Made by a program: the position numbers and the translations under genes. 46,955 nt of DNA, taken from NCBI GenBank assembly GCA_018701105.1, contig JABIWD010000004.1, forward strand, positions 1 through 46,955. The letters run 5' to 3'. The stretch comes from Candidatus Uhrbacteria bacterium. Its GTDB lineage: Bacteria > Patescibacteriota > Patescibacteriia > UBA9934 > UBA11717. Below the pieces are notes generated by a model, which ran no database searches, was not told where the DNA came from, and saw nothing but the letters and a program-made list of their open reading frames with translations. Within the stretch, counting starts at the first letter, position 1. The number at the start of each line of letters is the position of its first letter. Positions 976 through 20,539 of the stretch are shown here, one piece after another.

Positions 976-995
976 TCACCTATCCCCAACGACCC

Positions 996-1024
996 TTGAC
1001 ATCGACCCTGAGAGCTGTTGTAAT
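996..1024 (+). promoter_or_regulatory. sigma70-type promoter of tRNA-like unit 1
   Basis: TTGACA (996-1001), 17-nt spacer, TGTAAT (1019-1024); duplicated at 1648-1676. Confidence 0.7.
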
Positions 1025-1077
1025 AGAAGCAGCCTTGTGAGGTTTAAGACCTCCAAATTCAGGGTGGCGACAAATTA

Positions 1078-1120
1078 CCTCCCCATTATTCGTCTCATTG
1101 AGATGAACGGGGAGGTTTTT
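1078..1120 (+). terminator. Intrinsic terminator-like hairpin in the leader upstream of tRNA-like gene 1
   Basis: CCTCCCC...TTCGTCTCA-T-TGAGATGAA...GGGGAGG followed by TTTTT. Confidence 0.6.
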
Positions 1121-1129
1121 GTATCTCAT

Positions 1130-1202
1130 GGGCCCGTGGAGGTAATGGTAACCTTGCATGGTTTGCCACCCTGAGTCGCGGATTCGATTCCCGCCGGGTC
1201 CA
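1130..1202 (+). tRNA. Non-canonical tRNA-Ala-like gene (anticodon TGC in standard register, no encoded CCA)
   Basis: Acceptor GGGCCCG/CGGGTCC with G3:U70 and A73; 5-bp D stem GAGGT/ACCTT; anticodon arm CATGG-TTTGCCA-CCCTG; T arm GCGGA-TTCGATT-CCCGC (A53-C61 mismatch). Confidence 0.7.
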
Positions 1203-1237
1203 TGAGGGTTTAACCTATAAAAAAGCCGTAGCAAGTG

Positions 1238-1582
1238 CTACGACGATGTGCGGAAACGACCGAGAATGCCGGAACCAAACGACAAGAGTCCGAGCCAGAA
1301 CCATGCGACCACGATCACGAGCGCGCCCACTGGCATCACGTCGTACTGAACGAGATGAACGAGCACGATGAAGAAAGACAATGGCGCGGTGTAATAGCCC
1401 GTGCCAAAGATCGACGCCATCACCCAGACCAAGATCACTTTTCCGAATCCCGTCTCGCTCAATTGCATCGAAGTCTCACGGTCGCCGATCAAGAGTCCGG
1501 CCGCCATGAGCCCCGTTGCCCACATGATCCCGAACGTATACAGAAACTGCCACCACTCAACCGAAGAAGAATCGTAAAACAT
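1238..1582 (-). CDS. Hypothetical small membrane protein (about 3-4 TM)
   Basis: Hydrophobic ORF; GGGGAG SD before ATG at 1582; TTGACT-N17-TATGTT upstream on the minus strand. Confidence 0.65.
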   Translation of the reverse strand: MFYDSSSVEWWQFLYTFGIMWATGLMAAGLLIGDRETSMQLSETGFGKVILVWVMASIFGTGYYTAPLSFFIVLVHLVQYDVMPVGALVIVVAWFWLGLLSFGSGILGRFRTSS

Positions 1583-1647
1583 GACTCCCCCTTTCAACGC
1601 AAACATAACAATACATCGCTATAAAGTCAACCTATCCCCAACGACCC

Positions 1648-1676
1648 TTGACACCAACCTCGCGAGCTGTTGTAAT
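1648..1676 (+). promoter_or_regulatory. sigma70-type promoter of tRNA-like unit 2
   Basis: TTGACA-N17-TGTAAT within a ~54-bp near-identical copy of 978-1031. Confidence 0.7.
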
Positions 1677-1721
1677 AGAAGCACGCAGGTGAGGAATTAC
1701 TTCCAAATCCTTGTTGACGAC

Positions 1722-1763
1722 AATACACCTCCCCAATTTGTTGGGTGAGGTGTATTTGTTTTG
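1722..1763 (+). terminator. Intrinsic terminator-like hairpin in the leader upstream of tRNA-like gene 2
   Basis: AATACACCTC-CCCAA...TTGGG-T-GAGGTGTATT followed by TGTTTT. Confidence 0.55.
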
Positions 1764-1780
1764 AAACCCCAGTGGACCCT

Positions 1781-1857
1781 GGGCCCGTGGTGGTAATTGG
1801 TAACCTCACTTGCATCGTCAACAAGGGTCGCGAGTTCGAATCTCGTCGGGTCCACCA
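1781..1857 (+). tRNA. Non-canonical tRNA with Ala acceptor identity and non-Ala anticodon loop (CGT in standard register, GTC if shifted by one)
   Basis: GGGCCCG/CGGGTCC-A-CCA; D arm GTGGT-AATTGGTA-ACCTC; anticodon arm CTTGC-ATCGTCA-ACAAG; T arm GCGAG-TTCGAAT-CTCGT. Confidence 0.72.
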
Positions 1858-1910
1858 CTGGGTCATACTTGTCCGTGCCCCACCGGATAATCGATTTTAT
1901 TCATAATCAT

Positions 1911-19084: not shown

Positions 19085-20539
19085 TTATTTAAGTTGGTCG
19101 ATCATGTGTTCAATCTTCTCAATGTGCATCACGTTCGGTTTGTCTATCAATCGCGTAATAATATCGTCACGACTCAGCCCATGCTCGTCATGCAGCTCGT
19201 TCGCCGCTCTGATAATGAGACCAAAATGTGGTCCCGGTTTAAATCCCATCTTAATCAGCTCCCGACCGCTGATAACGTCCTGCGGCGGCGCCCTGTCGAT
19301 CCCAAGATCTCGCGCGCGATCCAAAAACCACTCAGTCGCATCCGTGTTCTTGCCGACAAACCCTTCTGGGAACGGTCCGCGCCCCTTTGTGTCCGCCTCT
19401 GCGACCCATGTGAGCATCTCAATATTGGACGGCTTCAGTTTTCGTGCCAAGTTTCTAAATCCCCCATCGCTAAACGCTTCGTCCGTGTCTCGTTTCTTCC
19501 AACATGGATACGGATACATGTGAAACTTCACCAAAGGCTTCACTGAATCGACAAATTTATCTAATCCCATCGCACCCAACATAGATTTCACACGCAAACA
19601 ACCAGCTGCCGGATGCCCAGGTGACCTAATGCGGCCCTCGACGGTCTTAGTAGTCTCCGGCTTTCCGCAATCATGACAAAATCCTCCAAGAACGAGCGTA
19701 AGCCGCGCATCATCGTCGAGCTCCTCGCGCTCCGCTATCAATACCGCCTCATCAGTCACCCACATCGTATGAGCCCAGACCGAACCCTCCGGATGCCACT
19801 CAAATTCCTGCTTAGTGTCTACCATATCCTGCACCAACGGCATGTCTTCCGCAAAAACTCCGATGCGGTAAGCAAGGTCGAGCCCGATCGATGGCTTTTG
19901 TGCTTTCAAAAATAGTTTACGCCACTCCGTTCGCTTACGATCGATTGAAAGCTCATGCAATTGAGAGCTCATCGACTTCATCAAAGCCTCGGTAGTCTCG
20001 TCAACGGTGAGCTCGAGCCTCCCCGCCAGCTGAACTCCACGCAAGACGCGCAAGGGATCCTCGCCAAAAGTTTGCTTGTCTACGATCCTAAGTAACCTCT
20101 TGTCGAGATCGACACGTCCACCGTAAGGATCATGGACTGTCCCATCGAGCATATCCTCCAACATCGCATTGATCGTAAAGTCCCGACGCCTCAAAGCATC
20201 CTCAATGCTCATATTCGGATCAACGTTCACATCAAACCCCTTATGCCCCGCCCCAATCTTAGAATCCTTCCGCGGTAACGAGATATCTACATCCATGTCT
20301 TCCACATGTGTATGCAGAACACCAAATGCGGTCCCCATTTCCTTCACTTCCTTAAAATGGGATTCAACAATAACCTTAAGGGCCTTCGCTTCCACGCCAT
20401 GTACCTCAATATCAATATCTTTTGCTTCGATCTCAAGAATCCGATCCCGAACAGTCCCGCCAACAAAATAAGCGCGACCTTTATTAAGCCACACAGTCTC
20501 AGCGAATGCTTTGAGTTGTGATTCGATAGCAGTGTTCAT
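19085..20539 (-). CDS. cca: CCA tRNA nucleotidyltransferase with HD domain
   Basis: 'VGGTVRD..L', 'DIDIE', 'RRDFTINA', 'EDPLRVLR', 'HPEG.VW.H' and 'HDCGK' motifs. Confidence 0.88.
   Translation of the reverse strand: MNTAIESQLKAFAETVWLNKGRAYFVGGTVRDRILEIEAKDIDIEVHGVEAKALKVIVESHFKEVKEMGTAFGVLHTHVEDMDVDISLPRKDSKIGAGHKGFDVNVDPNMSIEDALRRRDFTINAMLEDMLDGTVHDPYGGRVDLDKRLLRIVDKQTFGEDPLRVLRGVQLAGRLELTVDETTEALMKSMSSQLHELSIDRKRTEWRKLFLKAQKPSIGLDLAYRIGVFAEDMPLVQDMVDTKQEFEWHPEGSVWAHTMWVTDEAVLIAEREELDDDARLTLVLGGFCHDCGKPETTKTVEGRIRSPGHPAAGCLRVKSMLGAMGLDKFVDSVKPLVKFHMYPYPCWKKRDTDEAFSDGGFRNLARKLKPSNIEMLTWVAEADTKGRGPFPEGFVGKNTDATEWFLDRARDLGIDRAPPQDVISGRELIKMGFKPGPHFGLIIRAANELHDEHGLSRDDIITRLIDKPNVMHIEKIEHMIDQLK

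Follow-up and report, generated by a model that had tools for sequence, protein, structure and literature searches.

Two paralogous units in a 46,955-nucleotide (nt) stretch of Candidatus Uhrbacteria DNA (contig JABIWD010000004.1, positions 1 to 46,955; the whole stretch is referred to below as the window) each encode, on the + strand, a leader of ~80 nt and, beyond a terminator-like hairpin, a tRNA-shaped RNA of 73-77 nt whose D and anticodon arms are complementary to that leader. The units, at 978-1208 and 1630-1864, belong to a conserved family of RNA genes in which the leader and the tRNA-like RNA covary and match each other in a paralogue-specific manner. The interpretation we tentatively prefer, with confidence that stays a little under even, is that the leader acts as a cognate antagonist sequestering or unfolding its alanine-type tRNA-like RNA.

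All elements of both units were found where a preliminary description of this DNA had placed them, together with the claim that each leader is complementary to its own tRNA. From 5′ to 3′, segment A of each unit is followed by a small hairpin and segment B, and an A-rich linker then leads to a GC-rich hairpin with a T run behind it (T1). Next come a short 5′ flank and the tRNA-shaped stretch, and last a 3′ flank, which pairs back to the 5′ one to form a helix (P0) closing the tRNA-like RNA. Segment A is complementary to nt 22-31 of the tRNA-like RNA, which run from the 3′ strand of the D stem across nt 26 into the 5′ strand of the anticodon stem, and segment B to nt 34-43, comprising the anticodon, nt 37-38 and the 3′ strand of the anticodon stem. 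In unit 1, segment A (CCTTGTGAGG, 1033-1042) pairs with nt 22-31 (1152-1161) at 9 of 10 positions and segment B (CAGGGTGGCG, 1060-1069) with nt 34-43 (1164-1173) at all 10, the last 5 nt of B forming a toehold against nt 34-38 of the anticodon loop. Both segments of unit 2 are paired at 10 of 10 positions, A (GCAGGTGAGG, 1685-1694) with nt 22-31 (CCTCACTTGC, 1804-1813) and B (CTTGTTGACG, 1710-1719) with nt 34-43 (1816-1825). The stretches as bounded in the preliminary description were also recovered: in unit 1, TCAGGGTGGC (1059-1068) is the perfect complement of GCCACCCTGA (1165-1174), and GCCTTGTGAGGTT (1032-1044) pairs with AACCTTGCATGGT (1150-1162) with one U·U mismatch and three G·U pairs; in unit 2, CCTTGTTGACGA (1709-1720) pairs perfectly with TCGTCAACAAGG (1815-1826). 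Best duplex energies were -14.4 (A) and -21.5 kcal/mol (B) for unit 1 and -18.8 (A) and -17.7 kcal/mol (B) for unit 2, compared to non-cognate means of about -13 (A) and about -10 kcal/mol (B); summed over A and B, the duplex energies average about -35 kcal/mol. Folding of unit 1 (-83.6 kcal/mol, z = -5.96) predicted a leader stem-loop, T1 and a cloverleaf with an extended acceptor stem. The minimum free energy (MFE) structure of the whole of unit 2 (-70.4 kcal/mol, z = -2.93) already includes a long-range helix between leader segment B and the anticodon region.

Relatives were gathered by BLAST and a pattern scan, giving 52 distinct parsed units, and covariation was assessed in a MAFFT alignment of 48 full units. 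The helix between A and nt 22-31 is paired at 93.7% and the helix between B and nt 34-43 at 96.0% in this set, with double-sided compensatory changes at 20 of 20 pairs (10 of 10 in helix A). Shuffled controls reached the observed pairing or covariation in 0 of 500 cases, and slid controls were only 33-49% paired. Between unit 1 and the corresponding unit of a congeneric genome, three compensatory double changes are seen in the A and B segments. Opposite the anticodon, pairing of the leader is kept in 44 of the 48 units at nt 34 and in 47 at each of nt 35 and 36, with covariation. By comparison, the anticodon stem of the tRNA-like RNA itself is 78.3% paired (31-39 is unpaired in 27/48 units and 29-41 in 14/48), and the outer stem of the leader is 82.5% paired. 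Since the A and B helices score above both of these stems, the heteroduplex is the better conserved structure. The covariation that the preliminary description had read from the two window copies thus extends over the family.

Pairing is also specific to the cognate partner. Both segments match at 9 or more of 10 positions in 42 of the 52 cognate combinations and in 132 of the 2646 non-cognate ones, and in genome G020, which carries nine paralogues, the partner from the same unit was the best leader match in 9/9 rows. Canonical tRNAs did not reach this level of match with both segments in any case, neither in the window's genome (0/32) nor in distant loci (0/53; 0/85 in total).

A search of related genomes with a covariance model, along the lines of a check proposed in the preliminary description, revealed a conserved RNA gene family. 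We used a model of the tRNA-like body (R1) with a hit threshold of E ≤ 1e-13 at the level of the order, and at least one match was present in 85 of 151 sampled genomes, with 1-9 copies each, in all seven families sampled (about 215 hits). The three copies in the window's own genome, including unit 1 (85.2 bits) and unit 2 (84.6 bits), score 82-85 bits, and the best canonical tRNA of that genome 54.8 bits; across the family, members score 80-97 bits and canonical tRNAs of the same genome ≤55 bits. These results bear on the simplest alternative, namely that the units are ordinary or decaying tRNA genes with chance upstream complementarity, or a DNA-level inverted repeat. tRNA finders do call many members Ser(UGA), Thr, Ile and so on, and unit 1 lacks a CCA and has mismatches at two stem positions. 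Yet the genome already has canonical tRNA-Ala(UGC), tRNA-Thr(CGU) and tRNA-Ile(UAU), as well as a transfer-messenger RNA (tmRNA) on another contig, so that the units are extras; none of the 85 canonical tRNAs shows the leader match; and R1 separates members from canonical tRNAs. An inverted repeat is at odds with the permuted order of the two segments and with the excess of G·U over A·C cells in the pairing (47 vs 16), which is as expected for RNA pairing on this strand. The covariation and the controls already contradict this alternative, which we regard as extremely improbable.

Both tRNA-like bodies (1130-1202 in unit 1 and 1781-1857 in unit 2) have the acceptor stem GGGCCCG/CGGGTCC, giving G1-C72, G2-C71 and G3·U70, with A73 as discriminator. 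The D loop (UAAUGGUAA) and the T loop are of standard type, and the variable loop has 4 nt. The anticodon loops are UUUGCCA in unit 1 (anticodon UGC) and AUCGUCA in unit 2 (CGU), both with C at position 37. Unit 1 lacks an encoded CCA and has mismatches at 29-41 and 53-61; unit 2 ends in ACCA, the CCA being encoded, and has a C31·A39 mismatch. The body of unit 1 scored 37.5 bits against the Rfam tRNA model RF00005 (gathering score 29), that of unit 2 was unlisted at Rfam gathering, and ARAGORN called neither window unit as a tRNA. Rfam matches in E-value mode were limited to weak end-matches to tmRNA (23.9 and 28.6 bits, gathering score 47). Because unit 1 has no encoded CCA, it would need a CCA-adding enzyme; an enzyme of this family is encoded in the genome, and a gene of the CCA-adding enzyme/poly(A) polymerase family lies within the window at 20087-20473 on the minus strand (511-aa frame).

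Conservation is strongest in the acceptor/T half of the family, and the D and T loops are conserved as well. Among the aligned units G1-C72 is found in 48/48, G2-C71 in 47/48 and G3·U70 in 48/48, and A73 is invariant in 50 sequences; CCA is encoded in most members and absent from 10 of 52, unit 1 among these. Decoder-type anticodon arms have a purine at position 37 and a paired 31-39. The family departs from both features, with C37 in 46/52 members (a pyrimidine in 50/52) and 31-39 so often unpaired. U33 and a purine at position 35 are present in 52/52. The anticodon is UGA in 24 of 52 members and UGU, UGC, UGG, UAG or another triplet in the others. A G3·U70 wobble together with A73 is the alanine identity rule for alanyl-tRNA synthetase (AlaRS), as far as the available text of PMC11415595 describes it, and the units compared carry this combination. 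Since G1-C72, G3·U70 and A73 are invariant and G2-C71 nearly so, charging of the tRNA-like RNA with alanine is likely. No conserved reading frame was found in the unit, nor any phase preference after the leader triplet; a tmRNA-like or coding function was considered and rejected, as the distance from triplet to body is spread over the three phases 17/17/16 and in-frame stops occur early.

The arrangement of the complementary segments sets the leader apart from a simple antisense transcript. Along the RNA the order is A, B, A′, B′, so that the leader is not a plain antisense copy, and its outer stem repeats the two strands of the anticodon stem in swapped order. The inner hairpin of the leader resembles a D stem in many members, including both window units, and is unrelated in others; in unit 1 it is a D-arm look-alike inside the outer stem (GAGGT/ACCTC, 1039-1053, MFE fold), and in unit 2 it is GGAA/TTCC (1693-1704, centroid fold). 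The toehold consists of the 5-nt tail of the leader, that is UG plus the triplet complementary to the anticodon, and faces loop nt 34-38. The preliminary description had suggested that the anticodon complement is exposed as a toehold, and folding makes this plausible: its predicted unpaired probability is 0.65, compared to 0.27 for the adjacent stem strand, and the tail is predicted to be more open than the neighbouring strand in 46 of 50 units. On the other side of the contact, loop nt 34-38 have a predicted unpaired value of 0.68 and the neighbouring segments 0.14-0.34. U33 and the purine at 35 give a UNR U-turn in 52/52 members, a motif used by fast antisense loops that speeds loop recognition. 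Mismatches of the tRNA-like RNA cluster at 31-39, adjoining the toehold. Judging from the promoter layout, transcription probably starts 1-3 nt 5′ of segment A in each unit, near 1030-1032 in unit 1; as the leader would thus begin about at the first transcribed base, its 5′ end would be free to wind into helix A.

Together, these features suggest a mechanism for the antagonist interpretation. Each unit would be a self-contained two-RNA gene under one promoter. The leader RNA (~80 nt) would be made first, ending at T1, and transcripts passing T1 would continue into the tRNA-shaped RNA, with its alanine acceptor marks and non-decoder anticodon arm. In a first step, the 5-nt tail of the leader (UG plus the "codon") would contact nt 34-38 of the U-turn anticodon loop. 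A four-strand exchange would then run along the anticodon stem, past nt 26 and into the D stem, with A taking nt 22-31 and B taking nt 34-43. The D/anticodon half would thereby be converted into a two-part duplex of ~21 bp, leaving the acceptor/T-arm minihelix intact. With T1 between the two RNAs, the leader would always be at least equal in amount, and the tRNA-like RNA would be kept unfolded, or passed to RNase III, unless the leader is depleted. A cis-antisense element holding the RNA unfolded, which the preliminary description had offered as its alternative, is also viable.

T1 is a hairpin ACCTCCCC...GGGGAGGT followed by a T run in unit 1 (1077-1120) and ACACCTCCCC...GGGTGAGGTGT followed by ATTTGTTTTG in unit 2 (1725-1763), as judged from sequence and fold. 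In 49 of 50 units a stable hairpin is followed by 8 nt with at least 6 T, and the segment before these has a median MFE of -14.8 kcal/mol. The hairpin passes directly into the U run, as in intrinsic terminators, and T1 is accordingly a predicted terminator; it went unflagged in both window units by a simple terminator scan with a loop-size limit. The median distance from T1 to the start of the tRNA-like RNA is 26 nt, which leaves no space for a separate promoter, and hence the tRNA-like RNA must come from read-through of T1. Downstream of the body, the flank pairing P0 is seen across the family. In unit 1, CTCAT (1125-1129) pairs with ATGAG (1202-1206) and extends the acceptor stem; in unit 2, CCCAGTGG (1768-1775) pairs with CCACTGGG (1855-1862) and buries the CCA end. 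After P0, a T-rich site following a hairpin is found within 130 nt downstream in 39 of 50 members, and in unit 2 the terminator scan flagged a weak terminator-like hairpin with a T-rich tail (1869-1900) as a candidate second terminator.

The preliminary description had placed most weight on an autoregulatory attenuator, in which the mature tRNA-like RNA would bind the nascent leader in trans, alter termination at T1 and thereby feed back on its own synthesis. Promoter, leader, terminator and product follow one another as in a classic attenuator, T1 is almost always kept, the toehold borders on the A-tract at the base of T1, and the "codon" matching the anticodon recalls the T-box Specifier. 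A covarying antiterminator, however, was not found among 50 rows. When T1 was compared with nt 1-21, 22-43 and 44-76 of the tRNA-like RNA, the cognate combination was best in 1, 0 and 1 of 50 rows, and when the leader was compared with the two halves of T1, in 1 and 3 of 50 rows; the positive control, the 5′ half of T1 against its 3′ half, was best in 27/50. Moreover, cmscan of 900-1950 at E ≤ 10 gave no RF00230 match and nothing on the leaders, in agreement with the earlier statement that this is not a T-box, and binding would have to affect termination indirectly. The missing covarying alternative for T1 lowers the attenuator idea, which we now consider unlikely, and favours a fixed, presumably leaky terminator that would give leader in amounts equal to or above those of the product. 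Of the original interpretation, therefore, the complementarity, its covariation and specificity and the distinction from T-boxes are supported, as is the toehold as a plausible element, and the read-through switch is not supported.

Several observations weigh against the antagonist interpretation. A purely inhibitory role would call for a release trigger if there is always more leader than product. The conservation of the D and T loops means that the cloverleaf or L-shape is needed at one stage or another, and it could be the complex, and not the free tRNA-like RNA, that is active. Conservation of the loop consensus UUGACA goes beyond what pairing needs (UGA in 24/52, C37 in 46/52), which hints at an additional partner. 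Finally, the neighbouring genes are ordinary housekeeping genes, and the lack of a defence or mobile context does not favour a toxin-antidote reading of the antagonism. The patchy distribution and the multi-copy, paralogue-specific pairs, for their part, agree better with a lock-and-key antagonist than with a simple housekeeping donor.

In a toxin-antidote system made of RNA, a stable alanine-charged tRNA-like RNA would be harmful when free, either by mistranslating UCA, ACA and other codons or by titrating a translation factor, and a short-lived leader would neutralize it. The patchy occurrence with variable copy number (1-9), the rapid diversification of mutually specific pairs within one genome, the antidote-first gene order with an attenuated second gene, the U-turn recognition loop as in antisense-controlled systems, and the presence of an RNase III gene are all consistent with such a system. 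We nevertheless judge it very unlikely, since C37 should decode poorly and the neighbours are housekeeping genes, in part at conserved positions (three cases each of lepA and NUDIX, two of uvrB), rather than parts of defence islands or mobile elements. Among 80 flanking proteins, which represent diverse housekeeping genes, no conserved protein neighbour was found. A related and more specific variant of the antagonist interpretation, which we hold to be quite unlikely, is a caged tRNA: an alanine-charged look-alike with sense anticodons would be held unfolded by its paralogue-specific leader, and upon loss of the leader, for example when transcription is off, it would refold and act on translation through Ser/Thr/Pro-to-Ala mistranslation or factor titration, as an RNA-only toxin-antidote or stress switch.

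Alternatively, the leader and the tRNA-like RNA could form a composite RNA. The leader would pair in cis in read-through transcripts, RNase P cleavage would yield a two-piece complex, and the exposed alanine-accepting minihelix would be the active part, for example as a non-ribosomal alanine donor for a FemAB-family transferase that is kept from decoding. The helix formed in cis by segment B in the MFE structure of unit 2 agrees with this possibility, as does the strong conservation of the acceptor/T half with C71, C72 and G3·U70, given that C71 and C72 are critical for FemX according to the available text of PMC2175331. C37 and the weak anticodon stem speak against decoding, and the dedicated non-proteogenic tRNAs for cell-wall synthesis that the available text of PMC7826273 reports in staphylococci provide a precedent. 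The window's genome encodes RNase III, RNase P RNA and a FemAB-family transferase (contig C59, 962-1903) in addition to the CCA-adding-family enzyme, and thus has what the processing proposed here and for the antagonist would require. FemAB-family genes, however, were present in 5/5 genomes, including the two tested that lack the RNA family (G003 and G029), and therefore FemAB does not discriminate. The presence of the family in only 85 of 151 genomes also counts against a composite RNA, a conserved internal terminator and paralogue-specific pairing would be needless for a plain alanine donor, and the conservation of the D loop is unexplained if the D stem is permanently open. On balance we think this explanation as unlikely as the attenuator. 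Neither the Ro60 (TROVE) protein nor an aminoacyl-phosphatidylglycerol synthase was found in five genomes (0/5 for each, the window's own genome being included for Ro60).

Both units are preceded by a common promoter block, identical at 49 of 54 positions (978-1031 and 1630-1683), which contains a TATCCCCA box and a sigma-70-type promoter with a -35 TTGACA, a 17-nt spacer and a TGn-extended -10 TGTAAT. In unit 1 the box is at 981-988, 7 nt 5′ of the -35 as read from the sequence, and the promoter spans 996-1024 (-35 at 996-1001, -10 at 1019-1024); in unit 2 the box is at 1633-1640 and the promoter spans 1648-1676 (-35 at 1648-1653, -10 at 1671-1676). A TTGACA-N17-TGnTTTAAT-like layout also lies 5′ of homologues. 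Neither unit promoter was flagged by a simple promoter scan, which requires A at position 2 of the -10. The TTGACA of the anticodon loop was considered as an internal promoter and discarded, no usable -10 being seen by eye at the right spacing. Most units have a TATCC(A/C)CA box 7-9 nt 5′ of the -35 (both window units and most of the homologues L007-L072), which resembles the DnaA-box consensus, TTATCCACA. In the window's genome the box occurs together with TTGAC 14 times, compared to ~2.5 expected, other genes included; because it also stands before other genes, it is not unit-specific and looks like a general promoter-associated site. No known noncoding RNA was found downstream of four other instances of the box.

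A minus-strand open reading frame of 122 aa (1238-1606) sits between units 1 and 2. The congeneric genome G001 (locus L007) has a single unit followed directly by the sequence that follows unit 2 in the window, so that either the unit was duplicated in the window, with the copies flanking the small reading frame, or G001 lost the interval via recombination between direct repeats. The window's genome (894 kb, 63 contigs, 96% complete) contains a third copy on contig C25 (5544-5620, minus strand; locus L163) with leader, T1 and flanks alike; ARAGORN takes this copy for a tRNA-Ile(UAU), of which a canonical gene is already present on contig C23. Across relatives, tRNA finders label members tRNA-Ser(UGA), Thr, Ile, Leu, Pro, Val, Asp or Ala. 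The whole-genome ARAGORN list has 36 tRNA calls with a single CAU-anticodon tRNA, and tRNA-Cys, tRNA-Glu(UUC) and tRNA-Lys(UUU) were not found in this list and may sit in unassembled parts of the 63-contig genome.

Beyond the order, four diverged members from four families of the class keep the leader, T1 and the flanks; membership at this level was set by the leader test, since a second model (R2) lost discrimination from tRNA-Ala. In five complete genomes of the order the best R1 matches were only canonical tRNA-Ala or tRNA-His, and these are apparent absences. In the phylum sample all loci read were ordinary tRNAs (11 of 12 scoring genomes outside genome G000), and a BLAST search of the phylum with the 76-nt body lacked sensitivity, missing even the other copies of the window's genome. 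Records of metagenome-assembled genomes (MAGs) carrying the family are titled Candidatus Uhrbacteria or Patescibacteria group. A few further MAG records titled "uncultured Gammaproteobacteria" (loci L045, L057, L061 and L067) have units identical to those of relatives from the Candidate Phyla Radiation (CPR; loci L026, L016, L024 and L018), and these titles look mislabelled. Loci L041 and L030 (880-957, minus strand) share a differing, longer upstream region ("...GTTCAGAATGACA...") with poor A and B matches at the usual distance, and may represent a variant subtype or an insertion in the leader. At locus L052 (~1758-1840) unrelated sequence breaks up the body immediately 3′ of the 5′ T-stem strand; it could be an insertion or an intron-like element.

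The family occurs widely within a single order of the CPR/Patescibacteria, a poorly understood group with genomes of ~0.9 Mb that leave scant space for dispensable genes. If the proposed mechanism is true, the units would represent a new RNA-RNA device, a tRNA-shaped RNA that comes with a co-evolving partner of its own, which opens it through an exchange of strands, and a natural example of toehold-mediated four-strand exchange. They would also offer a testable route into non-canonical alanine-accepting RNAs, whether in cell wall synthesis, regulated mistranslation or RNA-only toxin-antidote logic. In practical terms, mislabelling of members by tRNA finders can distort CPR tRNA inventories and inferences on the genetic code.

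Rfam 15 holds no family for the leader, and full-text searches of the literature found no description of this architecture. Compared to T-boxes (RF00230), the units likewise have a leader 5′ of an intrinsic terminator with a triplet that pairs, like the Specifier, with the anticodon of a specific tRNA-shaped RNA. Here, however, the partner is the unit's own downstream product instead of a cellular tRNA, and there is no aminoacyl-tRNA synthetase gene under the leader's control. The units also lack the Stem I platform and the T-box/antiterminator element that pairs with NCCA, they pair over ~20 nt, which needs unfolding of the D and anticodon stems, and T1 shows no cognate-specific complementarity to the tRNA-like RNA or the leader. 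Control by antisense RNAs with U-turn recognition loops is known from hok/sok, CopA/CopT and RNA I/RNA II. The units resemble these systems in their cognate, fast-diversifying RNA pairs, the U-turn contact and a duplex suited to RNase III. They differ in that the leader is on the same strand, upstream and with its segments swapped, so that pairing would be a four-strand exchange and not zippering, and in that its target is the tRNA-like RNA rather than an mRNA or primer, with no toxin reading frame. A complementary RNA pair is thus present as in type I toxin-antitoxin systems, but without a conserved reading frame in the unit. A bacterial Y RNA of the YrlA type is not indicated either, as TROVE was not found in the five genomes and no Rfam Y-RNA match was found. 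With the non-proteogenic tRNAs of the Fem type, as the available text of PMC7826273 and PMC2175331 describes them, the units share the status of extra genes, an intact acceptor identity including G1-C72 and G2-C71, features disfavouring ribosomal use, and a FemAB-family gene in the genome; those tRNAs are not known to have a matching leader or internal terminator, and the RNA family does not track FemAB in five genomes. The acceptor end with G3·U70, A73 and CCA and the T arm recall tmRNA (RF00023, including its two-piece form), and a two-piece base-paired RNA is possible after processing, whereas the units match that model at their ends only (23.9-28.6 bits), have complete D and anticodon arms and contain no reading frame. 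Synthetic toehold strand-displacement devices such as toehold switches share with the units a short exposed toehold beside the exchanged stem and mismatches in the starting stem that stabilize the exchanged state; the units are natural and conserved, and their exchange would involve four strands in two hairpins, between a leader and a tRNA-shaped RNA. The architecture is partly T-box-like, in that a triplet before a terminator recognizes an anticodon, and partly antisense-loop-like.

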